Shown in pieces: positions 103 through 60,581 of a stretch of DNA of 64,000 bases. This stretch comes from Takakia lepidozioides (lineage: Eukaryota; Plantae; Bryophyta): NCBI GenBank assembly GCA_030704615.1, contig CM060732.1, forward strand, positions 24,304,001 to 24,368,000, read 5' to 3'. Positions within the stretch are counted from its first letter, which is position 1; each line of letters begins with the position of its first letter. Below the pieces are notes generated by a model that worked only from the letters and a program-made list of their open reading frames with translations, was not told the DNA's origin and ran no database searches. Both the position numbers and the translations under genes were made by a program.

Positions 103-326
103 GAGAGCGGCAGTCGCGCGGCTCATCTTTCTCGAGTTGAGCCTACGCGACCGAGCTCCTGCATGTGTTTAGGTTTGAGTGTGCTTATGTAGGGGTACAG
201 GTTGTTGTGGGGTGGAGTCCCCATAGCTTGGGGTGCCCCTGGCTCGACTTCAGTTTCAATGAGTGATAGCGATGGATTTTATATTTCTTGTGTTGGGAGT
301 GTGTGTCCTTTCTAGCTTGTTTATCA
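103..326 (+). repeat. 5' copy of terminal-repeat segment Y
   Basis: GAGAGCGGCAGTCGCG...TTGTTTATCA is near-identical to 11505-11805; the 3' copy has an extra 77-bp tandem duplication (11641-11717 / 11718-11794). Confidence 0.9.
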
Positions 327-2434
327 CTCGAGAAAGATGAGGCTTGCATCTGTGAGTGCCAGAGGTGAGTTTAGTTTTAAGCACTTGTGGTTTTTTGTTT
401 TAGAAGTGAGAGAAGAAAATTATGGTAGATTATGTTTGTGACAAGGCTGGTGGAGCAGCAGGATGATGCGCAAATGTAAGGAAGACTATGTTTGTTGGTA
501 GCTGCTGACAACCGTAACTCTGTCCCTGGACTTCTTCTCCGGAGGTGGAAGACTGTATGCAGCATGCATGCAAGAGTGTGGTTGTGACAAGAGAACAAAC
601 GCTTGCGGTTGAATAGTTGTTACAAGTTGGGCACTCGGTGCGTCGCTATAACTGCAACTGTACAGGAGCACCGCGAGAGGCAGATTGCTCTACAACCTTT
701 GCTGTACTTGGTCAGTCCAATGGTGACAAATCCAGACCTTGTTAAAGCAACATAGACAGAGAAGCGATTTATAGAAAGAAGGTGAGGAGCAGTGAAGAGT
801 GTACGGGAAAGGGAGCCCTGGCAGCCATGGCATAGCATCGTGCTCCGCACCACGGGTTATCTCGAAAGAATCGATGAAGAGTAACGATGCGAAAAGCCCG
901 CTTACAGTGTTGAAAATATTCAACACAACCTGCGGATTATCTATCTGAGTGCTTCTGAAGCTGCATGGATTAAGCTTCTTCAACACAGCCAATGCAGTGT
1001 TCATTATATGACAGTCATGACCAAGGAAGTGAGGAAATGCCTCATCTGCTCAGCTCAAGCTTTCCCGCTCTACAAGCTCCACGCTCAAGCTCTCGCTCCA
1101 CGCTATAGCAGACACGGTGAAATGGAAGGGATGCACTCGGCTTTGTGGTAGCTGAAGCCAAGAGACAGGGAAAACGATTGATACTCACCTTCACCAATAA
1201 TTATTCTATCTTCGGTGGAAGACGCAATATGTGCAATGGCGAGCCAGTATGCTGGTATTCATCTGAATTCGGAGGATGGCGGCGTATGTGAAGAACTGGG
1301 ATTCTAACCATGTGTTGGAGCTGCAGGGAGGTAGCGTGGTGGCGTAGGGTCGCAAGCACGGGGTCGGGGACATTGGCTGGTAGGACAGCAACGGCAGTGG
1401 TAGCGCCGGCCGGGTAGAAGGCTGAACTGAAATGCTTGGTGTCAGTTGGAATGACCAGCAACCTTTCCCTCCAGCAAGTCCACCCAACATAGCTCAAAGA
1501 CAGAGGAGACCTGTGACCGAGATATGGAGTGAGTGGTTATCCAACCTTGAAGTTTGTGGCCAGTCTGAATGCTGTTGCTGCCCAACTTGGCCAGACACTC
1601 GGTACACGAGCTTGCAAAGCTGCAGGGAACATTGCAGACAAGTCCAACGGGGATGTTGCGGTGGATCAGTATACCGCTAGCGGGTATGCTTCTACATTGA
1701 ACATGATTGCTACTTGAATTGAGATAGTGCCTTGCCCTATCGGAGTATGCAGACCTATGCTCCAAGCTTCAACTAAATGACGAAGCTGATCTGGTTACTC
1801 TCTACTCTGTGGATAGTCCAACACAGTTGCCTTTGTCAATAAGCTCCTTCACCACTTCCACATTTGACACTAGGTCCGAAGATTGTCTGAAGAGAGAGCA
1901 AGTGCAGATGGCAGCTGCCCGCCAGGTTCTGACAGAGTATCATCAGGGCTTGTCCCTGCATTAGGGATGGCTCGAGTGCTTGCATCACGGGAAACAGATG
2001 CCTGACGCTGCACAGGCCATCGCCATCGCCACAACCATACACCCGAGCTTGAGAGTCGTCGCTGGAGCAAAGCAGCTCACTAAGAGAGCGAGCCTGTGGT
2101 GCACCCGTAACCACAAATGAAACCTGGGAACGGTTCTTAATGGCGGGAACGTTTTGGTGTTAAAAAAAAAAAAAAAAAAACTTTGATCTAATTTAAATGA
2201 TAAAGAGCCTGGTTGGTCATAACTTTGTCAGATGGACTCCGTTTGACTCAGTTTTTGGGAGGATAGCTGCAGAAAGGGGAAATCTACCTATCTAGAACTG
2301 GTTTCTGTTTTTGGGACTCTGCTAAAAATCTATGGAATTTTTAGAGTGTGAGTGTGCCATAAAAGATCCACAATCCTGTCTCTAGAACCTGTGCTGGTCT
2401 ATATGAGAGACAAATCTGTGGATGTACTCCTTGC

Positions 2435-3184: not shown

Positions 3185-3703
3185 ATCAGGATTAGATCTT
3201 GCTTGGTCGGGCTTCTATTCTTCCCCTCCATCTCTGTACTATTTTCATTACCTTGTACTTGTAGTTGCCAAAGCCTCTCTTGGTGGAGGCCAGTCAGTCC
3301 GGGGTTTTGGGCTGGGATATTCTGCAGGATCAGCATTGCAGCTGGATTTTGGTGTGGGGGTGTTGATGTTTTGATTTCTTGTGTTTGGATCCCCCCCAAC
3401 ACCTGCATGCTTGACTGTGCGCCATGTTGGTTTTGTGTGGGCGCTTGCTTTCATAGGGATTAGGCCGGATTTGATCACCGGTCAATCCTAGAGTATGCTG
3501 TCGGTGGTGAGGCTGGAGTGATGACCAGCAAGACCACCAGTGTTTCTTCTATGGTGAGGCTGGGTTGATGACCAGCCAACCATAGGAGTTCTTGCGGTGG
3601 ATGCAGGTGCAGGTGCCCTGAGCCATTGGGATATGACCCTTAGACTGCAACAGGTGCCCACCCGTGTCACTATTAGATTAGTACTAGAGCCTTATAGTGT
3701 CAC

Positions 3704-6700
3704 GTGGAGGAGGTGCACATTGTGAGTGTCATTACGGAGTTACCCAAGGGTTTTGAGGGGAGTACGGCTACAGGCAGTAACAGTGAGAGTGGGTTCACAA
3801 GACGAGGTATTCGGTTCAGACCACCTTCACCGCCACCCTCAATTACTGTAGAGTCAGACACAGACTCGGAGGCTTCATCAACAGGTGTGCACTTTCATTC
3901 GCCATTGTTGTGGGACGACATGGAGGAGATGTATGGAGCTACCAAGGGGCCTCGTAGGTACTCTGGAGCTGTGGGCACAATCGAGTTGGATGACTTTATC
4001 CAGGAGTTCGACAGCTGGTGTGATTTGCAGCAGATGCGCAATCCACAGCTATTCACCCCATTCATGGCGTGGAAGGGACTGTTCCAGCATTTGGAAGGCC
4101 CGCCTATGGACGATTACCACGAGTTCAGGCGAGGACATGAAGCAGAGATTGAGGAGTGGAGGATGTATTGGTCACCTGACTACGTCTCCATTACTCGAGG
4201 CACGACGCGACCAGTAGCTGCATCAGTACCAATAGCTCCCACTGCCAGCACTAGTAGTGGAGCAAGTAGTGCTGGTACTTCTGTAGGTGGTACCAGTTCA
4301 AAAGGTGCTACTACTCCTCCTGCCACGACTACAACACATGTGCCTAGATTCAACCCGGTGGTGGAGTTCTTCCAGGAGTTGCGGAGGAACTACCAAGGTG
4401 TACGGACAGAGAAGCTGCGAAGTTTGCAAGACTTCCAGCGCAAACCCAGTGAGAGCCTGCGAGAGGCGTACACTCGTATGAGGCGCTTGATAAGTGTGAC
4501 CCAAGGGGTTACTGAAGCTCAGGCAATCCAGTTTTGGTATGGAATTCTGGACAAGGAGCTCAAGAGAAGGGTGCGAGATGCAACCCTGTTACAAGCAGCC
4601 CAACCCACATTAGCAGATGTGTTTCTGCTGGCTGAGCGGATTGAGCTCAACATGGTGGAGGAGCGAGTTGTTACAATTGGATTTGGCAAGGACATGCCTG
4701 CACGGGGCACAGCTGTCAGCCCACAGGCACAAGGGACTGCCCAACAGCGTGGTCAGGGGGGCAAGGTTGCCCAGCCCAAGTTCCATGGAGCTTACAGGGG
4801 ACCTCAGGTGCAGAGGCCCGTGGCATCTTTTGCAGGCCAACAGCAACCAGGGGTGATATGTTGGACATGTGGAGGACCCCATGTCAAAGAGATTGCCCAG
4901 AGATGGCAGAAGGCCGGCACAAGCACAGCCTGCACAGTTGCAGTGTGGGCATTGTGGCAAGTATGGGCATGGAGATGCCCAGTGTTATGACTTGCATCCT
5001 GAGTTGCGCCCAGGCCAGTTCCAAGGGAACAATGGTGGCCGGGGGCGAGGTGGACCAGCCCAAAGAGGACGAGGTGGTCGGGCACGAGGTGCAGGCCAAG
5101 GGCAAGCTCCACATGGCCAAGGACGCGGAGGTCAGGGTGTTGACCAAGGCATGGCCAATCGGCTTCAGCAGCTAGAGCAGAGGCTCGCTGCCATGGCTAT
5201 AGCTCAGGCGGTACCGGCTCCCAGGCGGGATGGTCCACCTCCTGCTCCTGAGGGAGGAGATATGGGAGGCATGGGATTCATGTGCGGAGCAGCACTACCA
5301 CTAGAGCAGGTGGAGTCTGCTGCAGCCGTGACTCGAGGAGCAGCACGAGTTCCTGAGCCACGAGGTGCAGAGGTGGAGTTGGATCCACAACGTGGGGAGG
5401 CAAGCCGTCAGGCGAGGCTGCCTCAGTCATTCACCTTGGCGGAGACAGTGTCAACGCCATCCATGGCACCTAGTTCTCGCCCGACTGTTACCGAGGCGGA
5501 GGTTACTATGCCATTGGGGAGAGCTACACGTGCAGCACTGACACCTGCTACCAAGGCTAGTGCAGCCGGTGTGTTATTGGGGGCAGCCACCTCTGTGTGT
5601 CAAGCCCCACTGTTCTCGGCAACCATGATTGCGACGCCGGGGGTGAGACCAGCTGCAGTGTTCAGACTAGCAGCAACACTCTGTGAGAGTGGGGAGGTCA
5701 CTTCATCTTCTGCGGAGTTAGTGGAAGGTGTAGTGGCAGAGGGATCCTCGGATTTGAGGGTCAAGACTGCCACGGCTGCGCCATGGCAAGCTGCAGCTGC
5801 CAGGTTGACGGAGCTGCCAGCTAGGCCAGCCATTGAGCGCGCCATGGTGACACCTGGAGTTGTCTTGTTAGACAACCAGGGAGGCATTTTCACTTTGAGT
5901 GGACCGGCAGGCAAGAAGTACCGGCCACTGCGGGTCTTGTTGGACTCAGGAGCTCAGCCACTGATGTTGGGCAGAGCTGCTATTGCAGGTTTGGGCCTCA
6001 TGGAGGCGGATATGGAGCCTTGTCCTTTCCAGATACAGACATCTCTGGGAGGATCAGAGCAGGCTCGCGGCATGACACGGCATCAGTTGGCTATTAGACT
6101 GCAGCCGGATCATCCTGTAGATGGCTCAGTGATGCGAGCCAAGGCCATTGTGACAGACGCGGTCTCTTACGATGTCCTCGTTGGTGGGGCAGTGTTATAC
6201 CCCATGGGCTTCACCCTGGATTTCTGGGAGGAGTCAGCATCCTACAGGCCTGGATGGCAGTCAGGGGATGGTCGCCGTGCACAGCTCCCTGTGACATTCA
6301 TTGGGGGTATTGCAGCTGCCCAGCGGGGCAAGATGCCAACACTAGCCGCCTTCACAGCTGCAGTTAGTTGGCCTGGAGAGTTGCTGGAAGGCAATGCCCA
6401 TGCAGAGGATGTGCCACCTCCAGCAGAGCAGGATGACATGCATGGTACGGCGGAGTTGCCTGCCATGGTTGCTCACACTCCGTTGTGGGGTACGAGCAAG
6501 GATTTGCAGCAAGCTGCTGATGGACGGGTGCAACAAGCTTGGGTAGAAGCTTTTGTACCGTCAGGAGAGGAGGAGAGTGCGGTGATTGCACCAGGGCCAC
6601 CTCAGTTGTCGCCATTGGACACCACACCTCTTGTGTGGCAGCGGCCGGATGAAGGCATTTGCCTTCTGGACTTGTTTGGCGGGATCAGCACCGGATTGGC

Positions 6701-9700
6701 TGCTGTGCTACAGGCAGGTGTGCGGGTAAGGCGTTACCTGTATGTGGAGAGGGATGAGACTGCACGACGCGTCTCACTGCGCCATGTTGGCTCAGTTGGT
6801 ACAGCAGTACCCTGACTTGTTGCCTGTGTCTGCAGTTCGTGGATACCAACAAGCCTTGCCAGCAGACATTTCCTTGGGGGGCGCAAGATTTGGAGCAGGT
6901 TGGCTCCATTGATCTGGTAGTGGCAGGTTGGCCCTGCCAAGGGCATTCATCAGCCGGGCATGGCAATGGATTGCGAGACTCGAGGACGGGTCTGTTTTGG
7001 GAGATGGTGCGGATTTTGCGCTGCTTGCAGCTTCATCAAGCTGTATCTCCAGCATACATCTTGGAGAATGTACCACTGATGGGTGATTCTGGGCCAGGGT
7101 GATGGCCAGTGTGCATCAAGTCCGGTCGTGGCTTGGGTCAGCAGTGTTGCTGGATGCAGCTGCAGTGGGTCACGGGCTCATCGTCCACGACTATGGTGGA
7201 CTAACTTGATGCCACCCGCACTGCTCAAGCGTGCATTTGATGGGGTGCAGCGGCCAGCACACCTCACCGTGGATGGCATTTTGGACACAGGAAGGCAGTC
7301 TCAACGTGTGAGACACGATGACCGTTCGCCTTTGGCAGTGGTCAACAGGGTGGGTCAACCACGAGCAGCATTACCTACACTGCTCAGCTTCCCAGGATCC
7401 CATGCTTTTCGGGATGGTGGACCTGGCCTCCTGTGGGATGCTCAGTTGCAGCAGTTAGTGGAGCCTAATGCCGACGAGCGAGAGCGGGCTATGGGGTTTT
7501 CCACTGGGACCACGGCGGTGCCTTCTCTTTCTGAGGCATCACGTCGTCAGGTGTTGGGGCAAGCAATGGATCTCAATTGCTTGACCTGGATTGTCAGCTT
7601 GGCTATGGCTGAGCAACGTAGAGTGCGGAGTGCACTTCCCTTGACGGTCTCTCTGCCTACCGAGACGGTACAGGCAGCGAGTGGGGGCGAGCCGGTGAGG
7701 ACCACGAGGTGTAGACATCCATGGCACACGTGGGAGGTGCTCGAGGTTCAGAGGGAGTTGGCAGCGAAGGCAGCTGTGATGGATGAGGTTGGGGATTCTT
7801 CTCGGGATGAGGAGGTTCTCAATGATGAGATGATGGGGCAGGATGAGGCCTTGTCATTGACTGAGCAGGAAGGGGTACTGCTCAAGAGGTTGCAGCATAG
7901 CAACCACGGGACGCGTCCTCTACCTCTAAGCCCACTGGACTTAAGGTTGCAGTTACGGAGGAGCCTGACATTGGACCCATTGTCACCGGAGGAGAGAGAC
8001 GACGTATACGGCGGTTCCTGAGGGCTTACAGGAATTGCTTTGCCTTCAGTTTGAAGGACTTGGGAGCACTGAAGGGTCAAGAGATCCGTATTGAGTTGGC
8101 CACTGACACGCCAATCTTTCGGAGACCCTATAGATACAGTGACATGGAGAGGTCTTTGATTCAGATGAGGACTCAAGATCTCTGGGAGGCAGGTTTGGTG
8201 GAGCTCTCTGGTGGAGAGTATGCTTCAGCCACAGTGATGCCAGCTAAGAAGGATGTCTATGGCAATTGGACGGAGAGACGTATGTGCGGTGATTACCGGC
8301 CTGTAAATCGTCAGACCAAGTCCGATAGGTATGCCATGCCAACACCAGAGGAGATCTTTGATGCCATTGGGCATTCCAAGGTCTTTAGCACGTTGGATTT
8401 ACGATCCGGATATCACCAGTTGCCGATCAAGGAGGCGGATAAGCAAAAGACGGCATTCTGGGGGATCAATGAGCACGGGAAGGATTGCCTATACCAGTGG
8501 CGGTTCTTACCATTTGGGCTTAAAAACGCTCCCGCTGAGTTTCAAAGAGTCATGGACAGGATTCTAGCAGGGGTGGAGTTTGCTCGGTGCTACATAGATG
8601 ACATCATCATCTTTAGTGCTACGGTGGAGGAGCATGAGAGACACCTTCAGGGGGTATTTGAGCGCTTGAGGACGCACGGATTGAAGTTACATCCGGGCAA
8701 GTGCAAGTTTTTCCACAACCAGATTGAGTATCTGGGTCACATGATATATCCTGGAGGATTGGGGGTACAGCAGACTAAGGTAGAGTCCATTGCACAGGTT
8801 CCACGCCCCACGGATGTGAGCCGAGTTCGAGCTTTCATGGGGTTAGCAAACTATTACAGACGGTTTGTTAAGGGATTTAGTGCCATTGCAAAGGCTCTAA
8901 CCAAGCTGACCAAGGTGGACCAGGAGTGGCAGTGGGAAGATGAGCAAGAACAAGCTTTTCAAGAGCTCAAGGCGAGGTTGACCTCGGCGCCCATCTTGAG
9001 ACGACCTATCAGGGGGCGTCCTTTTCAGCTGCATACAGATTGGAGCATGCTGGGGCTTGGAGCGGTGCTCACACAGGTGGATGATGAGGGAAGAGAGTTC
9101 GTAGTGGCTTATGCTAGCCGCTCGAACAATGCTGCAGAGTCTAAGTATAGCTCATATGAGGGAGAATGCTTAGCTGCAGTGTGGGCCGTGGCACACTTCA
9201 GGTGCTATCTATACGGCAATCTCTTCACCCTTGTCACGGATCACCAACCACTCAAGTGGTTGATGGAGTCAGACAAGCTTACGGGGAAGCTTGCACGGTG
9301 GGCACTCATCCTTCAAGAGTATGACTTTCAGGTGGTGCATCGACCGGGTTTGGTCAATCGCAATGCAGATGGGTTGAGTCGCAATCCATGCACGAGCCAG
9401 CAGGATGACACTGGAGCTCGGTGGCATGGTGAGACGGACGAGGAGATGGTGCCCGGATGGCATGCATCTGCATTTCTGTGTATCTTGGCAGCGGAAGGCC
9501 AGGTTGGACCTGCAACAGGGATGACTGTAGATCAAGTGTCTGAGGACCCTGAGGCCAGCAATGAGCAAGGTGGCGCCAAAGATATACATGAGGATTCAGT
9601 TGTGTTGGACTACCTCCGCACTGGAGACACTGCAGCCACTGTGACTGCCAAGGAGAGGGATCGGATCCTACAACGAGCCAAGAGGTTCAAGTGGGAGGGG

Positions 9701-11025
9701 ACACACCTGCTCCGAGTGTGGGAGGATGGTCGAGTGAGGATTGTGCCTCACCCAACACAGCGGGCACGGTTAGTGCGGCATGCCCATGAGGAGTTGGGGC
9801 ATTTTGGGGTGCGACGCACTCATAGTCTACTGCAGGGGCAGTATTGGTGGCGTGGTATGCACACAGAGGTGCAACAATTTGTGGCTAGGTGCATGGTGTG
9901 TGACAGGGTGCGTGCTTCATTCAACGCCCCTACTCCACAATTGCACCCTCTTCCGATCATGGGATTGGGCTACAGGTGGAGTCTTGACTTCGCAGGGCCG
10001 TTGCCACTGACCATGCGCCACAACAAGTACGTGTTGGTGATGGTGGAGCACTTCTCCAAGTGGATTGAATTGGTTCCATTGCCTGATAAGGCTAGTGAGG
10101 GAGCTGCGTATGCATTCCTGGATTGTGTGCTTAGCCGATTCGGTGCTCCAGCTGAGGTACTCACGGACCAAGGGAGAGAGTTCTTGGGGGAGTTTCAGGC
10201 TTTGTGTGACAAGGCCTTGATAGACCACCGCACCACTTCTCGGGATCATCCTGAGCCGATGGCTTGGCAGAGAGAGTTGTTCAGACAGTAAAGAGGGGTT
10301 TGCGCAAGTATGGCTTGCAGAAGGGACACCTAGGAGATTGGGACCTTCAGTTACCCTGGTTAGCCATGGGCTACAGGTTCAGCAAGCAAGCATCACTTGC
10401 CTCCTTCTCACCATACTTTCTTCTCTTTGGCCGAGAGCCGGATTTGCCTACATCCATTCGCAGAGAAGCTGCTACAGTTCTTAACCTTGACGATCCGGAC
10501 GTGTGGGCACGTGCATGTGAGCAGCGTGCAGAGTTGTTCAAGAGAGTCATGCCCATGGCTTTCGAGAACCTTGCCATTGCACAACACCGTGATACGTTGA
10601 GGTATGCTACCATACGTGGTGGGGGCTATCGTCCTGGGGTTCGGAGATTCAACCCTGGTGACTATGTCTATCTGCAGCAGACTGCTCCTACGACCCTGGA
10701 TGTGACTGCAGGACGTGTTATTTTGAGGGTTCGAGAGGTCTTGCCCTCAGGCGTCTTGGTCTTGGAGGGTCGGGATGGCATAACTTGGAAGGACCATGTG
10801 CGTAATTGTGCGCCATGTCACCTTCCGAATGTCGATGGCAGGATTGACCCAAACCTGGCAGTGGTATCTGCAGGTTTGAGGTGCATGTTGTGTGGGTCTG
10901 CTAAAGGGGCAGCCACCATGCTGGTGTGTGATCGATGCTCTAGAGGTTGGCATATGGGATGCTTGACTCCACCTCTTGAGATGGTTCCGGATGGGGATTG
11001 GTTATGTCCACATTGCATTGGATAG
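3704..11025 (+). CDS. Gag-Pol polyprotein split by several small frameshifts
   Basis: Consecutive ORFs 3704-4990, 4869-6815, 6839-7102, 7083-8021, 8051-10291 and 10264-11025 join into one colinear polyprotein; the breaks look like 1-2 bp indels. Confidence 0.9.
3920..4990 (+). CDS. gag: Gag domain with two CCHC-type zinc knuckles
   Basis: Retrotransposon gag motif LQDFQRKPSESLREAYTRMRRL; knuckles CWTCGGPHVK(R)DC (spans a frameshift) and CGHCGKYGHGDAQC. Confidence 0.85.
   Translation: MEEMYGATKGPRRYSGAVGTIELDDFIQEFDSWCDLQQMRNPQLFTPFMAWKGLFQHLEGPPMDDYHEFRRGHEAEIEEWRMYWSPDYVSITRGTTRPVAASVPIAPTASTSSGASSAGTSVGGTSSKGATTPPATTTTHVPRFNPVVEFFQELRRNYQGVRTEKLRSLQDFQRKPSESLREAYTRMRRLISVTQGVTEAQAIQFWYGILDKELKRRVRDATLLQAAQPTLADVFLLAERIELNMVEERVVTIGFGKDMPARGTAVSPQAQGTAQQRGQGGKVAQPKFHGAYRGPQVQRPVASFAGQQQPGVICWTCGGPHVKEIAQRWQKAGTSTACTVAVWALWQVWAWRCPVL
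5930..6240 (+). CDS. Retropepsin-type aspartic protease domain
   Basis: RVLLDSGA active-site motif and downstream YDVLVGGAVL motif. Confidence 0.85.
6655..7600 (+). CDS. DNA (cytosine-5)-methyltransferase domain, DNMT3-like, inside Pol
   Basis: Motif I LDLFGGI; II YLYVERD; IV IDLVVAGWPCQGHS (catalytic PC at 6932-6937); V GLFWEMVRIL; VI YILENV (7064-7072); VIII AHRPRLWWTNL; IX ERERAMGF; X RRQVLGQAMDL. Confidence 0.93.
8051..8760 (+). CDS. Reverse transcriptase domain (Ty3/Gypsy)
   Basis: RMCGDYRPVN, LDLRSGYHQ, LPFGLKNAPAEFQ, YIDD (8591-8602), YLGH. Confidence 0.97.
9020..9390 (+). CDS. RNase H domain
   Basis: LHTDWSMLGLGAVL, AYASRS, YSSYEGECLAAVWAV, LVTDHQPL, NADGLSR. Confidence 0.93.
9770..10830 (+). 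CDS. Integrase (HHCC zinc domain plus DDE core)
   Basis: HAHEELGH...CMVC; WSLDFAGP; LTDQGREF; (G)LAERVVQTVK; C-terminal FNPGDYVYL. Confidence 0.95.
10882..11016 (+). CDS. PHD finger at the integrase C-terminus
   Basis: CMLC-x11-CDRC-x4-HMGC-x14-CPHC, a C4-H-C3 pattern with the typical LTPPL..VPDGDWLCP tail. Confidence 0.93.
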
Positions 11026-11285
11026 TGGGAGTGGATACAACCATGGAAGGCTAACAAGAAACGCAAGGCCCAGCTACTAGGAGACCTTGAACACACGAGG
11101 TCCTGGCTCAAGTTCACAGATTGCAAGACGGCGACTAACGATGGGGCTACTCTTGTACCCGGCCTCTTGGTCTATAGAGTTTGAGTACAATAGGGACAGT
11201 GATAGAGGACTTAGTACGGCTGTGGCTATTACATCTTGTAGCTATCTGGAGGTAGAGGGACCTATCCACCAGCTAGGGGGGCGAT

Positions 11286-11891
11286 TGTGGCAGACTACTT
11301 TATTGTGCATATATGTGTGGTGTGGTTTGGACAGCGATGTAGTTGTGTAGCGATATGTATGCGCACGACAGCTGTCAAGTTAAATAAGCACAGTGTGAAA
11401 ACAGCTAGAATAAAACTAGTTATTTGTATTTAACACTTGGATTTAGGTCAAGTGTTAAATCAGGTGTCAAGTTTAGTTTGACACCTGGTCCGTCTTATCT
11501 TCACGAGAGCGGCAGTCGCGCGGCTCATCTCTCTCGAGTTGAGCCTGCGCGACCGAGCTCCTGCATGTGTTTAGGTTTGAGTGTGCTTATGTAGGGGTAC
11601 AGGTTGTTGTGGGGTGGAGTCCCCATAGCTTGGGGTGCCCCTGGCTCGACTTCAGTTTCAATGAGTGATAGCGATGGATTTTATATTTCTTGTGTTGGGA
11701 GTGTGTGTCATTTCTAGCTGGCTCGACTTCAGTTTCAATGAGTGATAGCGATGGATTTTATATTTCTTGTGTTGGGAGTGTGTGTCATTTCTAGCTTGTT
11801 TATCATTGTGGCAGACTACTTTATTGTGCATATATGTGTGGTGTGGTTTGGACAGCGATGTAGTTGTGTAGCGATATGTATGCGCACGACA
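11286..11891 (+). repeat. Composite 3' terminal repeat X(85 bp)-spacer-Y-X(85 bp)
   Basis: Identical 85-bp TG...CA direct repeats at 11286-11370 and 11807-11891, immediately after the purine tract. Confidence 0.92.
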
Positions 11892-12081
11892 AACGGCAAG
11901 GTCAAATAAAAAACTATTATTTTAATACTTGTTTAATCTGCCGCATTTCCAAATTTGGAGGAGTCCGCTCATGAAATCCGCGTATCTTAGACTTCGGCTC
12001 ACCGCTCATGCGGCTCATGCGGCTCATGGCTCATGGCTCATGGTTTCTGCTCATGAAATAGTAAACCTCATCTCAACGATT

Positions 12082-15000
12082 CCGGAGACAATGAATTTGA
12101 TGAGAATGCTCACCTGCACGTTGATCCCGAGTATGATAAACTCTTTCGACAATCGCAATGTCCATTTTTTGAAGGGTGCTCCATCAGCCGGTTGCAAGCA
12201 ACTTTGACGTTGCTGAACGCATGCACTACCCACAAGTGCACCAATGCATTTGTGGATGAGCTTCTGGGATTGTTGCGTAAGAGTTTTTTGCCTAAAGAGA
12301 ATTCATTGCCGAAAACTCACTTTGAAGCAAAAACCATGATTGCCAAGATGGGATTGCAGTACACGATGATTCATGCCTGTGAGCGTGGTTGTGTACTCTT
12401 CCGTGGGGAGTATGAGAATGTAGACATTTGCCCAGTGTGCCGCAGTTCCCGTTACATTCCAGGTCGTGGAAGTGTGCCCAAAAAAGTATTGCGACACTTC
12501 CCTGTCATTCCAAGGTTGAAACGTATGTACCGATGTAAATGATCGCTAACCTCATGACATGGCACGACAGACATAAGAGCCAGGATGGGTTGGTTCGACA
12601 TCCAGCTGATAGCAAAGCATGGAGACACATTGACACCACATTTGCGGATTTTGCTGTAGAGCCACGATCTCTGCGATTGGATTGGCCTAGACGGTGTAAA
12701 TCCCTACGGAGCTCAATCCCAAGTTGGAGCACATGGCCCGTTCTCTTGGTCAATTACAATCTGCCTCCGTGGTTAATGACCAAAAAGTTCTTTGTCATGT
12801 TAGCGCTACTGATTCCTGGTAAAGAGTCTGTTACCTCGGACAACGTAGATGTTTACCTGATGCCCCTAGTGGAAGAGCTACTGGAACTATGGAGAGGGAT
12901 TGCAGCTCATGATGTTTCCCGTCCTCGTGGTCAACGCGAATTCACACTGCGGGCAGTGTTAATGTGGTCCATCCATGACTACCCTGCATATGGCTTGCTC
13001 TCAGGTCAAGTGACGAAAAATTATGCTGGTTGTCCAGCTTGTGGACCCGGGGTGACTTCACAGCAGTTACACACATGTGGAAAAATTGTTTTCCTAGGCC
13101 ACCGAAGATTTTTGGCCCGCAATCATCCATATAGAAGGTCAAGAATGTTCAATGGCGCTACTGAGCATGGAACTCCTCCAAAAACACAGACTGGAACACA
13201 AATCAAGGACCTTGCAACAGCTCGCACTGCATGGGTGGAAAACGGAGGGACGCCAGATAGCAGGACAGACCCAGCAAAAACTCATGGAGTTAAGCGATTG
13301 TCAATTTTATATGTCTTACCTTATTGTGAGGTAATTCCTTCATGCCTTTAAATTGGCTGTGTACATTTTTGCGTTTTCTGTTTAAATTGTGATGAGTAAA
13401 TGCTCAATTGCTTATGTGTTCATTTTGTAGGGTCTCCTCATCCGCCACACGTTTGACGCAATGCATTGCGAAAAGAACTTGGCTGAAAATATTATTAAAA
13501 TTATCTTTGGTGAGAAAGACACATTGAAAGTTCGCCGTGATTTGGAGCTACTTGGGATGCGCCCGGAATTGTGGCTACAACGTGATCCTGACATAGCAGA
13601 TACGTTAATTATGCCTTCTGCCCCTTATGTCCTCACTGAGGCTGAGTTACAAGTCTTTCTGGAGATTGTGCCAGAACTTGAAAGTGCCAACAGGCTACGC
13701 ATCAGCTTTCAAAAAGCATGTGGTGAAGAAGAGTTGTCTGGCATGAAATCACATGACCATCATGTGCCCATGCAGCAAATTATACCGCTTGCTATCCGTG
13801 GGCTCATGCCAAGTGGTCCTCGAAGGGCCATTTTGCGAGTATGTCGTGTATTTAAGAAGTTGTGTGCAAAGTGGTGAATCCTGTAGAGTATGAGGAATTG
13901 AGAACTGAAGCAGTTCTCACTCTGTGTCTTATAGAGAAGGAGTTCCCACCATCATTTTTTGATGTGATGACACATCTGGTTGTTCACCTAGTGGATGAGT
14001 TGTACTTATGCGGGCCCGTAGCATCTCGTTGGATGAACCCCATGGAGCGGGCAATGAAAGATATGAAGGGCTACGTAAGAAACATGGCAAGGCCCGAGGG
14101 GAGCATGGCAGAAGGATACCAATTTGAAGAAGCATTGGGTTTTTGCACAGAGTATATGGCAGGATTTTATGGAAGGGTACGAAGGGTGTGGGATGCAGAT
14201 GAGGCAGAATCTGTGGAACGTGAAGTTGTGGAAGGAAGTTTTAAAGCCCGAAAATTGAATGACCTGTGTGATATTGTACATGAGTACATCATTCAGAACC
14301 ATCCTCGTCTATCAGTCATGTTGGGGTAAGAAATCTACTTCATTGACATTCAGATTTCCAAGTTTTAGTCATTTATCATTAGTTGGCATATGGCGTCTTT
14401 TCAAATCTCCCACGCCACCTCTGTCAATCTCCTGGCTGACCCTCGGATTGTGACAGGATATATGAAGCAGAGTCCACCGGATAGAAGCCAGACGACGCTT
14501 GTTTCGTGAGGAACAAGGGCTTGGAAGGCATGAGCAATCCCACGGCAATTCAGTACCCTCCTGATTTGCATCCTTGTCCTCCATTTGCTGTTTGGCTCCC
14601 TCAAGGTGTACGGGATCATCTCTCAATTCAATCAGATGGGCTTGATCCTACACACACGTGAGGAATTACTGGATCTTTCAGGCCTCCATCATTTACTGCC
14701 CTGTCATTCAAGAGTATGACAGCGTATGGTAACCATCACAGGGTTACATCCCCCGGCATGAACACAACAAGTATGGTGTCTTTTGATTGTGGAGTCTCAT
14801 CTGTTTTCCAGCACCAGCCCATTACCAGCAATTCAGGCAATGAATGGAGGAACCTACAAGATACGTGGGTCTTATAAGAGAAGATTTGCAAATTGACTAT
14901 GGCCAAACACAGCCTATAGTGTTTTTGTGTTCGTGGGTACGGGCGAGTCGCGTGGGTCGTCAACCTATGTCAATGAAGCAGGATGATGCTGGCTTCATAC

Positions 15001-16620: not shown

Positions 16621-19500
16621 ACAATGAACTTGCAGGGATTGAGCTTCCAATGCGAACCAGGAGTCTTATATTGATAGCATTGTTGTAAACACATGGACCA
16701 ACAATGACAGTCTCTGGAATGACATATAGTACAGTAATGACATATAGTACAGCATGCCGCTTCCAGTTGACCATCTACCCATGTAGGTTTCTTGTACCTA
16801 TCCTTCCACAGGGTAATGTGGAGCTTGAAATCCAGCCCTCTTGGATGAATCTGGACCCACACTCTATCCCTGCTCCTTCAGCTATCCATGCCTCTGACAG
16901 CCTACAATTCTACCAGCAAAACACCCCAACCATACTGGTGTGGAGTTCTTCCCCAAAACACCCCAACCCTACTTATCACAATCTGAAAATGCATCTGCTT
17001 CTCTCTGTAGTCCAACAGGCATTCGCCTTTTTTGTCTCCATTGTCCCACCATTGGGGTCGGAAAGTGTTCACCCCAAAGCTTCTCCTCACCTCTTTATAT
17101 GTTTTTGGATACTTCCGTGCTGCCACACTGGCAGTAACTTGCCAAATTCACTGCAAACCACCACAGATCTACCCAACAACCTAACTTACAGAATTCAATA
17201 TGCATCTTGCGGCCGAGTCTGATGAGAGGGCAACACAGGCTGAAATAGGTTGAAGGAAAGGTGCCCTAACCACATTTTCCTTGACCTGTCCTGACCCATG
17301 GAGGATTTGACTGATGACCTCTTGTGTGGTGCTGCTTGTGTCTGTAGTCAGGTAAGTCGGATTGGTCTGTCAGATCGAACCACTACGGCGCAGATGAGTA
17401 GTCAGAGATTGAAACACGCTTGCTAAGACCAAGCTGACTCTCTCAAGAACGGCGAGCTCGCTTCTCCTCGTCTCGTCTCCTCCTCCTCTTCTCCTTCTGC
17501 ATCATTTGCTCAACGCCTCCATCCACGCCCCTGCATATCCTGCTATCATCGCGTTCCATCCCTCAACTATGTGGTGTGGCACAGGAGACAAAAAGACGCC
17601 AAGTCCCAGCCCTCCTTTCTGTTCACGATTACACTAATGGGCAACCTTATTAGCAATTTTTTTTTTAACTTTTCTAAACCTAATGGGCAACCTTATTTGC
17701 ATTATATGTGCCTTCAAAATGACACGTGTAGTGATGAGTCGTATCGTATAAATAGAGCTCTGAAACCATCTTCAGTCATGGACTCATAAGATTCCATGAA
17801 ACGTCGTCCACGTGTAGTCAAACATATCACACTAGTCATATAAACCATCCTTGTCATCATGGTCAACAATATTTGACCAATGCTCCCTAACTTTCCAGAG
17901 TCATGTAGTGATATCCATTACTACAAAGTCATAAAACTAAAACTGTAATGCATTTCAGCGCTCTGTAGTCATGTACCTAGTGCAGTTTTTATGACTCCGC
18001 CAAAGCCGTAGTCCTAAAAACGCTCATCTCTTGTAGTGCTTGCAAGAGTTCCAACGAAAGCCTACCGAGAGTTTAAGGGAGGCTGACACGCTCATGAGGC
18101 GATTGATAAATGTAACCCAAGGGGTTACGGAAGCTCAAGCAGTCCAATTCTGGTATGGGATATTGGACAAGGAGCTGAGAAGAAGGGTGCAGGATGCAAC
18201 TTTCCTACAAGTGGCCCAACCCACCTTAACAAATGTGTTTTTGCTGGTAGAGCGGGTAGAGCTCAATATGGTGGAGGAGCGAGTGGTCATGGTGGGGTTT
18301 GGTAAGGAAACACAACGAAGTGGGGCTCCTAGCTAATAACAACCACTACCCCAACGTGCTCAAGGCAACAAAGGGGCTCAGGCGAAGCCCAGGGAAGGGC
18401 AGAGAGGATCTCAATTGCAGAGGTCACTTCCTTCATTCTTAGGCCAACAACAGTCGGGAGTGTCATGTTGGGATTGTGGAGGCTTCATGTGTGGAGCCGC
18501 ATTTGCAGGACCATTGCATGTGGACTCTGCAACTGCTGTCACTCGAGCAGCAACGCGTGCTCCTGAGCCAAGAGAAGCGGATGTGGATTTTGATCCACAA
18601 AAAAGGGAAGCAAGTCGGCAGACAAGGCTTCCACAATCTTTCACATTGGCTGAGACAGTGCCAATTATGCCATCGATGGCACCCGCTCGCCCAAGTGTGT
18701 CCGAGGTAGAACCACGAGTGCCATTGGGAAAAGTTTGTATGGCTCGGGAAATGTCAGTGGGTGATACTGCAAAGCAAGGTGCAGCCAGTACATTGTTGGG
18801 GGCGGCTACGGCAATTTGCCAAGCTCCATTGTTTTCTGCCATGATAATTGCAATGCCGGGGATGCGGCCAGCAGTGTTTAGACTAGCAGCTGCACTATGT
18901 AAGAGTGGTGATGCATCGACACTATCTGCGGGGATAGCGGATAAGGTGCAGTGCATGGATGCCCTGGATTCAAGGGTGAAGACAGCCACAGCTGCGCCAT
19001 GGCAAGCGCAGCTGCAAGGTTGCAGGAGTTTTCAGCTATACCAGCCATTGAGCGTAGTATGGTGACTCCTGGGGTAGTCCTGGTGGACAATCACGATGGT
19101 GTATTTCAGTTGGGTGGCCCAGCCGGGAGGAGGTATAGGCCACTGCGGGTCTTGTTGGACTCGGGAGCACAATCATGATGTTGGGGAGAGCAGCAATTGC
19201 AGGCTTGGGCCTTACAGAGGCGGACTTGGAGCCTTGCCCTTTCCAAATTCAAACATCTTTAGGTGGTTCAGAGAAGGCGCGAGGGATTACACGCCATGAG
19301 CTCTTCATTCGATTGCAGCCGGATCATCCTACGGACGGCTCAGTCATGAGAGCTAAAGCCATTGTTACAGACGCGATGTCCTATGATGTGCTTGTTGGTG
19401 GGGCTGTGTTGTACCCCATGGGATTTACTCTGGACTTTCGGGAGGAAACAACATCCTACAGACCGGAGTGGCAGTCAGGAAATGGCTGACGTGCGCTGCT

Positions 19501-20351
19501 CACTACAACAGATCGCGATAATTATGACTGCCAAACTGTGGTAGTCATGGTTTTCTTGACTTTGACCATGACTGCACCATGTTTTTATATGAAATTGACC
19601 TCCCGCAGTCGTTCATACGACTGTAGTCCTACGAACGACTATCTAAGTAGTCGTCTGTATGACTACATGGCTCCAGAATGGGCGGAAGGCTGGTCAACGG
19701 CAATTGACCAGATTTAGCTCACCATTCATAGTCATTTCCATGACTACAGTGTACATAGATGAGGTTACATAGTCATGATGACTACTGGGGATTTTGTAAT
19801 TTGGTGTGTATAATACAATTAAAACACCAAATAATCACATGAATGACTAATGGATGTATTGGTTAGCAGGTAGTGAACTATAACTCTTATAGTAAAGAGG
19901 TTGTAGGTTCAAACTCCTCTAAGTATAATCAAATGGATAAGATGGCCCTAGGGTTAATAGGCGAGCTAGGGATAGCACGTGGTACCCTAGATGGGCTGTC
20001 ACGTGGTTTTTTCATTATTATAAAATGCATTATGCCACGTGGCACAATGCGGTGCGACGCGGCGTCTGACATATCTTTTTAATTTTTTAAGTTTTTTAAT
20101 TTAATTTAATTTATCTTAATCAATTGCGCCTCGCCATGTGGCGCGGCAGCGGTGACTGCAGTATGGTATATATATGACTGCAGTGAGAGATATCACTTGG
20201 TTCATCTGACTGTAGTCATCTGGACCGTACCATCCTGTACTCATTGTATTCACTTGGTTTGCACGACTTACAGTCACAGAAGTCATATGTACCGTTTATA
20301 ACTGTAGAATAGTCATATATACAGTCATAAATACCGCGATCTGTTGTAGTG
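19501..20351. mobile_element. Non-autonomous CACTA element (MITE-like, 851 bp)
   Basis: 30-bp TIRs CACTACAACAGATCGCG... with 2 mismatches; flanked by TGCT/TGCT; removing it restores the pol frame RALLQVRF. Confidence 0.92.
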
Positions 20352-20721
20352 TGCTCCAAGTGCGGTTTATTGGGAATGTAGTGGTGGATCATAGGAACAT
20401 GATGCCCACATTGGCTGCATTCTCAGGGGTAGTGGCTTGGGGTGGTGAGCTCTTGGAGGGCAATAGCCATGCAGATGATAGGCCTCCACCTGATGAGGAC
20501 AAACAATTGGCATACAAGGCTGAGTTGCTTCCTCATGTGCCTGTGAATAACTCACTGTGGGGTACAGTTGGGAATTTGCATCGAGTAGTAGGCGAGTGTG
20601 TGCACCAAGCATGACAGGAGGCATATCCACTGGTGAGTGAGGGGAGTTCAATGACATCACATGGACCTCCTCAGTTAGCTCATTTGGACACAGTGCCCAT
20701 TACCTGGCAACCACTTGATTC

Positions 20722-22550
20722 AGGGATTTGTTTGCTAGACCTGTTTGGAGGCATGAGCACTGGGCTTGCAGGCACTACTACGTTTAGGGGGGGGGGGGGG
20801 GTTAGCGATGTCAGGACCCCGGGCGCGCCGGACGCACCGACCCCCCTGCGACTGCAGCGTCGCACAAGAGCTCGTCTCGGAACTTACGACGTCGGGGCGT
20901 CGTAACGCCGACGCTCGGACGACGTTGTGGCATCTTGCGATGCCATGCCGTTGCCGGAAAGGGGCCTGATCCCATTCCCCCGCCAACGCACTGGGGGGGT
21001 TGCGACGCCCTGACGTCGCAACAATTTGCTGCGACGCCCCTGAGATGCTGCGACGCCGGGGAATCGCAACGAGACGTCGCAGCCCAGCAACGCTTTTGCG
21101 ACGGTCAGGCGCTCCTGCGATGGCGGGGAATCGCAAATGCGTTGCAACATTTTTTATTTTTTTTGCGATTCCCCGCCGTCGCAAATGCGTCGCAGGGGCT
21201 GCGGCGATGCGATTCCCCGGCGTCCTGGGGGCGTCGCAGAAAATTGATTCTGGGAGTAGATTGTAGAGCATAATGGACTTGGCATCCTCAGACTATAGCC
21301 ATTGTCCAGCAATAAGTTGCAATGCAGCTTTGCAAAACTTAGGCCATTGATAGATATTTGTTCTTGAACAACTCTAGGGACAAGTCTCGGTGCAAGTTCC
21401 AGCTGTGCGAGCTCCTGTAGAGTACGCATAATCTGCAACACAATGATAGGATTGAGATAGTCCCCGACGACGCTAATTAGCGACGTTCCGGGAGCGACGT
21501 CGCTGCGACGTCTGTGCGACTTCCCGACGTCGCAAAATGCCCCCGGCGCGCCCCGGGCCCCGTATATTATTTCCGTCGCTAATCGCGGTGGTTGGAGGTC
21601 ACTGGGGCATCGCTAAACCCCCCACCCCCCCCCCCCCCCCCCCCCCCCCCAAACGTAGTAGTGAGGAGTGTTGCAAGCAGGGATTAAAGTACGCAAGTAC
21701 TTGTATGTGGAGAAGGATGAGATAACTCGGCGTATTTCTATGCGCCACGTTGCCTTGCTCACACACCTGTACCCTGAGTTGTTGCCTCTCTTAGCAATTC
21801 AAGGGTACCAAAAGGCCTTGCCAGCAGACATTACCATGCTGGGGGCGGATGATTTGGGCCGGCATGGTGCCATTGACTTGGTGATAGCCGGATGGCCTTG
21901 CCAAGGACGCTCTCCCGCAGGTCATGGGAATGGCTTGCATGATGCAAGAACGCATTTGTTTTGGGAGATGTTACGAGTGTTGCGTGACTTGCAAACGAGG
22001 CAAGTGCAACCTCTAGCCTATATCTTGGAAAATGTTCATCTTATGGGGGACTCTTGGGCCAGGGTTATGGCCAGTGTGCATCAGGTGCGGTCTTGGATTG
22101 GATCGGCGGTGCTATTGGATGCAGTAGCGGTGGGATCACACGCGTATCGACCTCGATTGTGGTGGACCAATCTTGCACCACCAGAGCTGCTCAAGAGAGC
22201 ATACGATTCCATTCAACGGCCACCCAATCCATTTTGGATCAAGGGAGGCAACCACAGAGGGTGCGACATGATGACCGTCCACCTCTAGCAGTGGTCAATC
22301 TAGTGGGGCAGCCACGTGCGGCAGTGCCTACACTCGTGAGCTTTCCCTCGTCTCATGTTTTTCAAGACAATGGTCATGGGTTGATTTGGGACAGTGTGCT
22401 ACAGCAATTGGTAGAGCCCAATGCGGATGAGCGAGAGCGGACAATGGGGTTTGCCACGGGCACTACAACTGTGCTAATTTTGTCAGAGGCATCACGCCGA
22501 CAAGTGTTAGGTCAAGCAATGGATCTAAATTGCTTGACATGGATCATTGG
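20722..22550 (+). pseudogene. DNMT3-like methyltransferase domain of copy 2, interrupted by a CACTA MITE
   Basis: LDLFGGMSTGLA|GVLQAG, IDLVIAGWPCQGRS, YILENV, AYRPRLWWTNL, ERERTMGF, RRQVLGQAMDL. Confidence 0.9.
20773..21663. mobile_element. Non-autonomous CACTA element (891 bp, CpG-rich)
   Basis: TIRs CACTACTACGTTT / AAACGTAGTAGTG; 3-bp TSD AGG; many GCGACG/CGTCGC subterminal repeats; deletion derivative of 60180-61562. Confidence 0.93.
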
Positions 22551-23311
22551 CTTGTGCATGGCTGAGCAACGGAGGTTGCAGACAGTGGTGGCTACTTTTG
22601 CACTCCCATTTGGTATTGCATCCTCTTTGCCAACCGGGACAGTTGAGGCAGTGAGTGGGGGCGAGCATTGGATCATGGGGTGCAAACACCCATGACAGAT
22701 GTGGGATGAGATGCGGAAAGAGAGAGTCATTGGATCTCTCAAGCAGCAATATGAGGAGTGGGGAGAACCATACACTGAGGATCAGTTGGAGGCCAAGGTG
22801 GCCAATGTTTTTGAAGATGTTGAGAATGTTTCTTCCCAAGATGATGTTCTCAAGGTGGCTATGGCGGAGCAAGTGGAGGCTACGCCACAGTTAGGGTGGG
22901 CGGATAAGTCCCAAGAGGTTGCTATGTAGCAACCAAATGATGCGTCTCCTACCTCCAAGTGTACCCAAAATTGCAGTCACTGAGACAATTGGGAACCAGA
23001 TGTTGGACCTACAGTCACCGGAGGAGAGAGACGGAGGATCCAGCGATTTCTAAGGGCTTATAAAAATTGCTTTGTATTTGGTTTGAAGGATTTGGGGAGT
23101 TTGAAAAGCCAAGAGATTTATATTGATTTGACAAGTGACACGCCAATTTTTCGAAGGCCCTATAGGTATAGTGACATGGAGAGGTCTTTGATCCAGTCAC
23201 GGACTATGAAATTGTTCGAAGCTGGATTGATGGAGTTGTCAGGCGGGGAATATGCCTCAGGTGCCAGCTAAGAAAGATATCTATGGCAATTGGACAGAAA
23301 GAAGGATGTCT

Positions 23312-23686
23312 GGGGACTATGTGTATCTGCAGCAGACAGCACCAACGACCTTGGATGTCACAGCAGGACGTGTGATTCTAAGGGTACGGGAGGTGTTGCC
23401 TTCAAGAGTGTTGATTCTGGAGGGTCGAGATGGCATGATATGGAAGGAATATGTGCGCAATTGTGCGCCATGTCACCTTCCACATGTGGATGGGATGATA
23501 GATCCCAACTTTGCAGTGGTACCTGCAGGGTTGCGTTGCATGCTATGTGGGCATGCTGGTGGTGCCGCAACCATGTTGGTGTGTGACAAATGCTCAATGG
23601 GGTGGCACATGGGATGCTTGACACCGCCATTCGAGGAGGTTCCTAGTGGAGAATGGTTGTGTCCACGATGCCTTGGCCATAGGTAG
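23312..23686 (+). pseudogene. Integrase C-terminus plus PHD finger of copy 2
   Basis: GDYVYLQQTAP...CMLC..CDKC..HMGC..WLCPRC. Confidence 0.9.
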
Positions 23687-23944
23687 TGGGCATGACAATG
23701 GTGTAGTTGACAAGTGATCCAAGGTCTAGCTGGTGGGAGCTCAACGCCATGGATACTCAATTGAAGATCATGGATTGCAAGCAGGCGACTAACGATGGGG
23801 CTCTCGTTGCACCCGACCTCTTGATCCATATACTTTAGAAAATTGAGACATGTGCGATTGAAGACCAAGCGATGATCTTATTGAGATGGATATTTGTCAG
23901 CTATCCGGTGTTAGAGGGACCTAATCACCAGCTAGGGGGGCGCT

Positions 23945-24469
23945 TGTGGCATAGTTTTCTAGGATTGTGTGGTTAGAATGTATGGTAGACAACGATGTAT
24001 GTTGTGGCACGATGCTTAGGTGCACGACAGCTGTCATGGTTTTAGTCATGGTTAACTAGAATTACCTACTTCTAGTTAACTAGGACATTTTGGATATTTA
24101 TATTTGTATTTTGTGTGTTGGAACTTCATTTGGTCTCATATGCCAAGTGAGGTGTCAAACCTCACTTGGGACATGGGGATGGGTTTTCCCCTTGTGAGTG
24201 TTGAGGAGGGTTCATCTTCTTGTAGTCGAGCCCCCCGAGGCTTCTCTCGCCGCCATAGCTCTAGTACTTGAGATGGAGAGTGGGTGAGGTCTGTATGGTG
24301 GAGTCCTTTAGCAAAGGTGCCATTGGCTTGACTTATATAACGTGATAGAGTGGTTTCTCCTCTTTTCACCATTTCCGTATCCCTTGTGGCATAGTTTTCT
24401 AGGATTGTGTGCTTAGAATGTATGGTAGACAACGATGTATGTTGTGGCACGATGCTTAGGTGCAAAACA
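23945..24469 (+). repeat. Composite 3' terminal repeat of copy 2, X'(85)-spacer-X'(85)
   Basis: 85-bp TG...CA repeats at 23945-24029 and 24385-24469 (3 mismatches), after AGGGGGG. Confidence 0.9.
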
Positions 24470-25483: not shown

Positions 25484-25487
25484 TTAA

Positions 25488-50430: not shown

Positions 50431-50431
50431 T

Positions 50432-60540: not shown

Positions 60541-60581
<41 letters not shown>

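Follow-up and report, generated by a model that had tools for sequence, protein, structure and literature searches.

Retrotransposons that carry a cytosine methyltransferase have so far been reported from dinoflagellates and one alga (PMC5890265), a range that a follow-up paper of 2025 repeats as 'streptophytes and dinoflagellates' (PMC12344493). KnitGypsy-Dnmt3 was described as an element acquired in the lineage of Klebsormidium nitens, with few copies and with the enzyme in one open reading frame (ORF) with the reverse transcriptase (RT), and the domain of SymbioDIRS-Dnmt3 from Symbiodinium methylates CG de novo in yeast (PMC5890265). For DIRS elements, de Mendoza et al. proposed methylation of the complementary DNA (cDNA) in the same paper. 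Here, we describe a Ty3/Gypsy element with a DNMT3-type methyltransferase in a stretch of 64,000 nucleotides from the bryophyte Takakia lepidozioides (GCA_030704615.1, contig CM060732.1, positions 24,304,001 to 24,368,000, forward strand), referred to as the window. There is good support for it as a land-plant representative of a known kind of element, KnitGypsy-Dnmt3.

The methyltransferase domain and its type

According to six-frame translation and Pfam searches, the first copy of the element (copy 1) has the domain order gag-protease-methyltransferase-stop-RT-RNase H-integrase-PHD at 3698-11025. The second copy (copy 2), at about 18000-23700, is decayed further and has lost most of the RT-integrase part. 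Motifs I (FxG), IV (PC), VI (ENV), VIII (RxR) and X of C5 cytosine methyltransferases are all present with their catalytic residues. The in-frame middle pieces matched Pfam DNA_methylase (PF00145) above the cut-off (E 2e-12 and 4.4e-12), and the copy 1 domain with X at the frame breaks matched a profile derived from the 48 intact domains of homologs with E 6e-164. None of the four motif-I and C-terminal pieces matched DNA_methylase when taken alone.

An earlier sequence-only reading of this DNA had described a complete enzyme with its motifs in order between protease and RT. The order was found in both copies, but completeness was not, as neither window copy is intact as assembled. The methyltransferase of copy 1 has frame breaks near 6789, 6877, 7091 and 7165, with three further breaks elsewhere in the element (all as assembled), and its pieces are free of premature stops. 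These breaks may stem either from decay or from the assembly. At most of the break sites, the lengths of other contigs from this organism are different, and hence the breaks of copy 1 are not fixed in the family. The methyltransferase of copy 2 shares 75% amino-acid identity with that of copy 1 and is interrupted by a non-autonomous CACTA insertion with a 3-bp duplication and by one frame break. All its motifs follow in order downstream of the protease and before RT, as expected from the earlier claim that a second, divergent copy has the domain at the same position.

The enzyme has a signature of the DNMT3 type and not of the DRM type, with an unpermuted motif order and DNMT3 as the closest match in sequence and fold. 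When solved structures were searched with the family profile, DNMT3A scored best (2e-24), DRM-type entries ranged from 1e-11 to 6e-8 and aligned to the motif I-IV part only, and HaeIII and DNMT2 reached 4e-8 and 5e-5, respectively; DNMT3A was also the best match in a search with a single sequence (1.8e-7). The AlphaFold model of an intact homolog from Calypogeia (75% identical to copy 1) had a mean confidence score (pLDDT) of 92.6 and matched DNMT3A/B/C best (Foldseek E 2e-20; Z 28.8, root-mean-square deviation 2.4, 268 aligned residues), followed by the CpG methylase 4dkj (Z 25.3), HhaI (23.9) and EhMeth (22.6). The capture of a DRM enzyme was rejected, as the motifs run from I to X without the circular permutation that places VI-X before I-V. 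Hence, of the 'DNMT3/DRM-type signatures' noted earlier, the first half of the label applies and the second does not. The enzyme thus resembles the catalytic domain of mammalian DNMT3A/3B in sequence, structure and motif order, but it is only about 25% identical and has neither a PWWP nor an ADD domain. The target-recognition loop was unaligned in the profile search, and therefore the sequence preference of DNMT3A/3B cannot be transferred to it.

Judged from the copies and relatives, the methyltransferase is a family trait of an abundant element, in agreement with the sequence-only reading. Both copies carry the domain, and the summed contig depth of the methyltransferase bins, which is a relative guide and not a copy number, was 0.87 (run X2) and 0.74 (run X5) of that of the RT bins in two DNA runs. 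It exceeded the depth of a low-copy insert at 420-2160 hundreds-fold. A one-off gene capture was rejected. The domain also does not evolve neutrally: between copies 1 and 2, the methyltransferase had a dN/dS of 0.12 (326 codons), compared with 0.10 in the RT start, 0.11 in integrase-PHD and 0.08 in the protease, with a range of 0.08-0.15 between subfamilies. Within two subfamilies (metagenome loci, ten each), the values for methyltransferase and RT were 0.57 vs. 0.54 and 0.31 vs. 0.33. By this measure the methyltransferase is under purifying selection, as RT is. Among single-segment loci, the catalytic Cys was kept in 44 of 45, the Glu likewise in 44 of 45, and the Asn in all 45.

The stop codon behind the methyltransferase

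The sequence-only reading had placed the methyltransferase inside Pol. In fact, it ends the Gag-protease frame, and RT and integrase lie beyond a conserved stop. Both window copies have TAG CAA CCA at the matching place and in the frame of RT. A UAG followed by CAR-YYA is the readthrough signal of tobacco mosaic virus, with an efficiency of about 10% (PMC2754532; for CARYYA, see also PMC3441728). A stop followed by CARYYA occurs eight times on the + strand of the window, and because the combination is this common by itself, only its conserved in-frame position is informative. We therefore compared 51 methyltransferase-RT junctions, 33 from near subfamilies and 16 from a distant subfamily (loci L058-L079). 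In 30 of the 33 near-subfamily junctions, TAR-CAR lay 84-108 nt ahead of RT and in its frame. The other three comprised one with a deleted linker, one with a lost stop and one with TAG-TAG-CCA. The exact CARYYA was found in L006, L033, L035 and the window.

The same boundary appears in annotated genes. Five Marchantia gene models contain Gag, protease and all methyltransferase motifs and end at the matching place (intact models Mp4g09160, Mp5g06330, Mp5g06860, MpVg00370 and MpVg00540 of Marchantia polymorpha). On a 7,497-bp contig of K. nitens, KFL_013780020 (Gag-protease-methyltransferase) adjoins KFL_013780010 (RT-RNase H-integrase) as a separate model. Because a conserved stop of the readthrough type parts the Gag-protease-methyltransferase frame from RT, the enzyme is probably made at the level of Gag, and Pol would be produced by readthrough of a leaky-type stop. 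The conserved stop thus predicts capsid stoichiometry for the enzyme.

Table 1. Features of the two element copies, with positions in the window.
Feature	Position	Strand	Remarks
Repeat A1	103..326	+	5' part and left element end absent in this copy; 98.6% identical to 11505-11719
A segment, 16 nt, putative self-primer	122..137	+	complementary to site just after A1; control maximum 8 nt
Primer-binding site	326..341	+	self-priming type, without TGG tRNA-type start
Insert in 5' untranslated region	420..2160		low-copy, followed by A-run; from depth and six-frame translation
Extra ORF, 273 codons	2363..3184	+	upstream of gag; high depth, i.e., part of the high-copy element
Gag	3698..5010	+	zinc-knuckle-like region; Retrotrans_gag match below cut-off (E 9e-4); frame break near 4900
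Aspartic protease	5865..6302	+	LLDSG
C5 cytosine methyltransferase, DNMT3-like (copy 1)	6651..7620	+	motifs I-X ordered; four frame breaks; I DLFGG 6669, II YVERD 6741, IV AGWPCQG 6923, VI LENV 7061, VIII HRPRLWW 7179, IX ERERAMG 7476, X LGQAMD 7554
Stop, TAG CAA CCA	7898..7906	+	end of Gag-protease-methyltransferase frame, in frame with RT; linker frame break upstream
Reverse transcriptase and RNase H	7991..9400	+	Pfam RVT_1, RT_RNaseH
Integrase	9701..10880	+	H2C2, core and C-terminal part; frame break near 10255
PHD finger	10882..11025	+	end of Pol frame; Pfam PHD 5e-11
Polypurine tract	11275..11284	+	directly 5' of B1
Repeat B1	11285..11370	+	ends GACA
B1/A2 joint	11367..11376		palindrome GACA-GC-TGTC, head-to-tail element ends; predicted integrase site
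Repeat A2	11373..11805	+	starts TGTC; 77-bp internal duplication
Repeat B2	11806..11891	+	right element end (...GACA)
Copy 2, gag fragment to protease	17995..19486	+	broken
Copy 2, methyltransferase	20720..22575	+	split after motif I by CACTA element (20773-21663); motifs I, II, IV, VI, VIII, IX, X at 20738, 21704, 21887, 22025, 22145, 22429, 22507
Copy 2, stop, TAG CAA CCA	22927..22935	+	before RT
Copy 2, RT start to PHD finger	22975..23677	+	RT start fused via large deletion to integrase C-terminus and PHD
Copy 2, polypurine tract and repeats	23934..24469	+	B1 23944-24029, GC, A2 24032-24383, B2 24384-24469

Element ends, proposed replication and possible role of the enzyme

The element has the protease-RT-RNase H-integrase order of Ty3/Gypsy elements with a DDE integrase, but instead of two full identical long terminal repeats (LTRs) it has split repeats in the arrangement A-ORFs-B-A-B, and the first ca. 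130 nt of A are present in A2 alone. A tyrosine-recombinase element of the DIRS/PAT type was rejected, since the Pfam search of the ORFs gave no recombinase match and an integrase and, at related loci, target duplications are present; bacterial contamination was rejected as well. Gag shares 62% identity with the N-terminus of the Marchantia protein P0003. The element ORFs had no Pfam match to a chromodomain, and a PHD finger follows the integrase instead, with CHD4, PHF12, KDM5A/B and ATXR5 as best PDB matches. The extra ORF upstream of gag had no Pfam match, only atlas matches under 0.9, and no counterpart in loci L001-L080. The insert at 420-2160 had a depth of ca. 1,000-2,400 compared to 390,000-1,340,000 on the element body (run X2) and is possibly a captured host gene fragment. 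Contigs overlapping parts of this insert, which are diverged, came from two runs guessed to be RNA. In the element itself, contigs of these two runs covered some parts and left 6920-7326 uncovered; we base no conclusion on them. Rfam had no match in 1-26000, and ARAGORN found no tRNA.

The repeat plan A1-ORFs-B1-A2-B2 is shared by the window, L046, L059 and L064. Related insertions start with TGTC and end with GACA (TG...CA ends), and exact 4-bp target duplications were found at three of the five related loci with both ends. The two joints within the repeats differ in precision. In 11 sequences, the B1/A2 joint is GACA-NN-TGTC or deviates little from it, and six of these, including both window copies, have a perfect palindrome with a GC spacer. 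The A2/B2 joint is variable; L034/L036, which represent one insertion, retain a copy of the primer-binding site there, and one run X2 contig has purine-tract letters at the A/B joint. The precise palindromic B/A joint together with the sloppy A/B joint suggests integration from an end-joined circle. Foamy virus integrase has been reported to cleave a palindromic circle junction (PMC1180852).

A putative signal for the start of replication is also present. No tRNA-type priming site follows A1. Instead, a segment of A is complementary to the site just after A1 over at least 10 nt in 11 of 14 left ends and over at least 15 nt in five of the 14, with control maxima of 7-9 nt. The pairing covaries, as three different sequences each match their own partner site, and the region 115-350 folds with a z-score of -6.2. 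Self-priming has been predicted for Tf1/Sushi and Tcn1 elements (PMC6317226).

These features can be arranged into a proposed cycle. Most ribosomes would stop after the methyltransferase and a minority would read through into RT, integrase and the PHD finger; the protease would then release the domains inside the particle. The minus strand would be primed by the RNA itself, through pairing of the A segment with the site behind A1, and plus-strand synthesis would begin at the purine tract in front of B1. The product would be a linear B-A-ORFs-B-A DNA with B+A as its LTR. Joining of the linear ends would form a circle and leave the sloppy A/B joint, and the integrase would open this circle at the palindromic B/A joint, so that the element inserts as A-ORFs-B-A-B, with the PHD finger probably selecting the chromatin. 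The abundant methyltransferase would mark the DNA before insertion, while it is free of chromatin, and the new copy would arrive methylated. Such a mark could either conceal the copy from surveillance by the host or dampen it. The proposed replication mechanism is likely to be previously unreported. If a DDE integrase does open a circle at an internal palindrome, no recombinase is needed to explain DIRS-like split repeats; the structure of the ends suggests how an integrase element could come to have such repeats, a route that can be tested.

In summary, we think it rather probable that this is a bryophyte KnitGypsy-Dnmt3 element whose enzyme, encoded in the Gag frame and packed in Gag-like amounts, methylates the element's own new DNA. 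Considering its position, conserved catalysis and predicted abundance, cDNA methylation in or near the particle appears most likely.

A minor chance is left for action at the insertion site, where the methyltransferase, either still attached to integrase-PHD or accompanying it, would methylate the chromatin of the target site or the copy just inserted. The chlorophyte-containing clade has the domain between RNase H and integrase (25 proteins with the order RT-RNase H-methyltransferase-integrase-PHD), and the PHD finger resembles those of CHD4, KDM5 PHD1, BHC80 and UHRF1. Such fingers read unmethylated H3K4 or H3 tails, like the ADD domain of DNMT3A. In the lineage of the window, however, the stop would keep most methyltransferase molecules apart from the integrase, and RT-RNase H lies in between.

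An action in trans on the host genome upon derepression, owing to production at the level of Gag and with non-CG methylation of transposons in general as self-restraint or interference with competitors, is in our view unlikely. The unbroken Gag-protease-methyltransferase frames kept in the five Marchantia gene models would fit such a role. In Mpmet mutants transposable elements are derepressed and 'methyltransferase activity' is enriched among the up-regulated genes, which is known at the level of the gene ontology term only; non-CG methylation increases and its sequence preference changes, for which the authors invoke unidentified pathways (10.1101/363937). The same authors favour RNA-directed DNA methylation or a CMT-like activity, and the cytoplasmic assembly of Gag calls the access of the enzyme to the nucleus into question.

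We regard it as quite unlikely that DNA binding or a local replication step, such as protecting or licensing the palindromic B/A joint, maintains the domain, rather than an epigenetic marking of the whole cDNA. Both strands of this joint contain CAG/CTG, and the changes in its spacer are transitions, but host methylation explains these changes equally well. The lack of methylation by the Klebsormidium domain in yeast (PMC5890265) and the replacement of the motif IV Pro in one subfamily would also agree with a non-catalytic role, whereas the catalytic Cys, Glu and Asn and the S-adenosylmethionine-binding motif are kept across lineages, which favours catalysis. Methylation of the element RNA instead of DNA, for which packaging alongside the RNA and the fold shared with DNMT2-type enzymes could be cited, is very improbable, as the enzyme is closer to DNMT3 than to DNMT2 by profile score and structure (Z 28.8 vs. 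22.6).

Several observations weigh against the methylation of new element DNA by a Gag-level enzyme, or against parts of the proposed cycle. With respect to the stop, CAA-CCC, which differs from CARYYA by one base, is the form in most near-subfamily loci; no conserved stop was found in this linker across the 16 rows of the distant subfamily L058-L079, and methyltransferase and RT are fused in several relatives. With respect to the enzyme, the authors of the yeast experiment call the result inconclusive (PMC5890265), internal stops occur in 38 of the 45 single-segment loci, and the motif IV Pro is replaced by Glu in the distant subfamily L058-L079 (17 of 45 loci). Between the two window copies, dS approaches saturation (pS 0.55-0.65). 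The element shows no specific CpG loss that would be a methylation scar (observed/expected ratio 0.50-0.54 vs. 0.52 in the rest of the window and 0.59 in CACTA), and CHG depletion in the window is likewise not element-specific. For a host-DNMT3 origin, the grounds would be PDB similarity and de Mendoza et al. only. With respect to integration, the target duplications fail at two of the five loci (one mismatch in L017, none in L064), and the left end of the window copy is missing. L012, L016, L037, L070 and L079 stop at B1, without the A2-B2 block, which could equally be explained by recombination or by direct cutting of linear DNA.

The reading can be stated more broadly, as a green-lineage Gypsy clade, reaching from chlorophytes to liverworts and peat mosses, in which an active DNMT3-like enzyme has persisted after one ancient capture event. 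In bryophytes, such elements would express it at capsid level by a leaky stop and integrate from an end-joined circle that their DDE integrase opens at the palindrome, and upon derepression the enzyme would in addition contribute to the non-CG hypermethylation of the host in Marchantia met mutants. In this full form, we would give it only a small chance of being correct.

Relatives and comparison with known elements

Homologs with E 1e-10 or better formed 403 clusters at 50% identity, of which the best 150 were examined. Named homologs came from Marchantia polymorpha, Calypogeia fissa, four Sphagnum species, Closterium, Klebsormidium nitens and Scenedesmus. Two architectures were found, with the enzyme either before RT or between RNase H and integrase, and the latter formed one clade including Scenedesmus in both quick trees (RT and methyltransferase). 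The chlorophyte-containing clade (P0214, P0100, P0152 and others) is large, and many of its members were missed by Pfam. In IMG/VR, only phage-type methylases were found (30 loci, best E 7e-14).

The methyltransferase tree covered element and phage enzymes only. The window copies grouped with Calypogeia, Marchantia and Sphagnum proteins in this tree (support 100) and with Calypogeia and Marchantia in the RT-RNase H tree (support 99), which by itself makes a bryophyte host, probably a liverwort or moss, most likely. In the RT-RNase H tree, K. nitens, Closterium, chlorophyte and bryophyte rows also formed a group with 94% SH-aLRT, the outgroup consisting of no more than two long-branched sequences. 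The methyltransferase tree places chlorophyte rows within the streptophyte rows, which the RT tree does not; as the roots of these quick trees rest on distant outgroups, no donor or direction can be derived from them. In the L001 subfamily, the methyltransferase groups with Sphagnum, and RT-RNase H lies on short branches with Marchantia P0010; the two placements make a horizontal transfer among bryophytes possible for this subfamily.

By homology, the lineage is wider than reported, extending to Marchantia, Calypogeia, Sphagnum and Closterium and to chlorophytes with the enzyme after RNase H. The sequence-only reading had proposed a land-plant methyltransferase-bearing Gypsy element; the Marchantia, Calypogeia and Sphagnum proteins establish the presence in land plants, but the co-linearity with K. 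nitens speaks against a separate land-plant capture. On the sequence level, the published picture is extended by a wider range, the position of the enzyme in the Gag frame before a leaky-type stop, a signal for self-priming and the anatomy of the circle junction. The intact genes of Marchantia polymorpha, a genetically tractable land plant with published methylomes, make the activity, substrate and expression of the enzyme testable. Moreover, inventories of bryophyte DNA methyltransferases may include element-borne enzymes labelled as hypothetical proteins.

Besides the element, the window contains a number of other repeats. The non-autonomous CACTA element within copy 2 (CACTACTACG ends, 3-bp duplication; 20773-21663) has a sibling copy at 60180-61566, and decayed CACTA transposase pieces (Transposase_21, DUF4218) are located at 12057-14329, 26774-27775 and 56052-56609. 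A pair of ca. 1-kb inverted repeats with 92% identity (24470-25487 and 37172-38191), the first of which begins directly after the right end of copy 2, encloses 11.7 kb with a gag-zinc-knuckle-protease-like region on the minus strand (32361-34942). Two arrays of 10-bp units (CACAG-type; 50313-50451 and 55195-55420) lie ca. 4.8 kb apart, and a pentatricopeptide repeat fragment with a weak Pfam match is present on the minus strand at 47377-47829, which we take to be of the PLS type.

In the literature searched, to which most subscription papers did not belong, so that absence is not proven, we found no land-plant element of this kind and no integrase-based split repeats. The passages searched in PMC9985172, PMC11982613, PMC12885004, PMC2864245 and PMC6453930 do not mention such elements. 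The sections of PMC5890265 consulted, figures and main supplement apart, describe neither a readthrough signal nor a mode of priming nor a model of integration; Marchantia is not mentioned, and 'PHD' is absent from the main text.

The closest described element is KnitGypsy-Dnmt3, with which the window element shares a Gypsy Pol, an unpermuted Dnmt3-type domain, purifying selection and the A-coding-B-A-B repeats (PMC5890265). Over protease and methyltransferase, K. nitens KFL_013780020 and Marchantia P0003 are co-linear (29% identity over 569 amino acids, E 1e-54). The copy 1 methyltransferase is 39% identical to KFL_013780020, and KFL_013780010 shares 46% identity with the window Pol over 91%. 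Unlike KnitGypsy-Dnmt3 as described, the window element occurs in land plants, has a very high copy number and has a conserved stop after the enzyme. The position of the enzyme in the same frame as RT holds across the stop in the window; the two are fused in the distant subfamily, and one K. nitens locus consists of two models. SymbioDIRS-Dnmt3 likewise has a Dnmt3-type domain in a retroelement polyprotein and A-B-A-B repeats (PMC5890265), but it uses a tyrosine recombinase, in place of which a DDE integrase is encoded in the window element, together with TG...CA ends and, in its relatives, 4-bp duplications.

Tcn1 and the Tf1/Sushi chromoviruses are also Gypsy elements with predicted self-priming and occur in mosses and club-mosses (PMC6317226). 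They have ordinary LTRs and a chromodomain, in contrast to the split repeats, PHD finger and methyltransferase of the window element. Foamy virus shares the predicted use of an integrase on a palindromic head-to-tail circle junction (PMC1180852), but there the junction that is cut is the product of end joining, whereas the site predicted here lies within the repeat block, at a joint of its own that is templated. Cutting at such a templated joint would, unlike in foamy virus, permute the repeats upon insertion.

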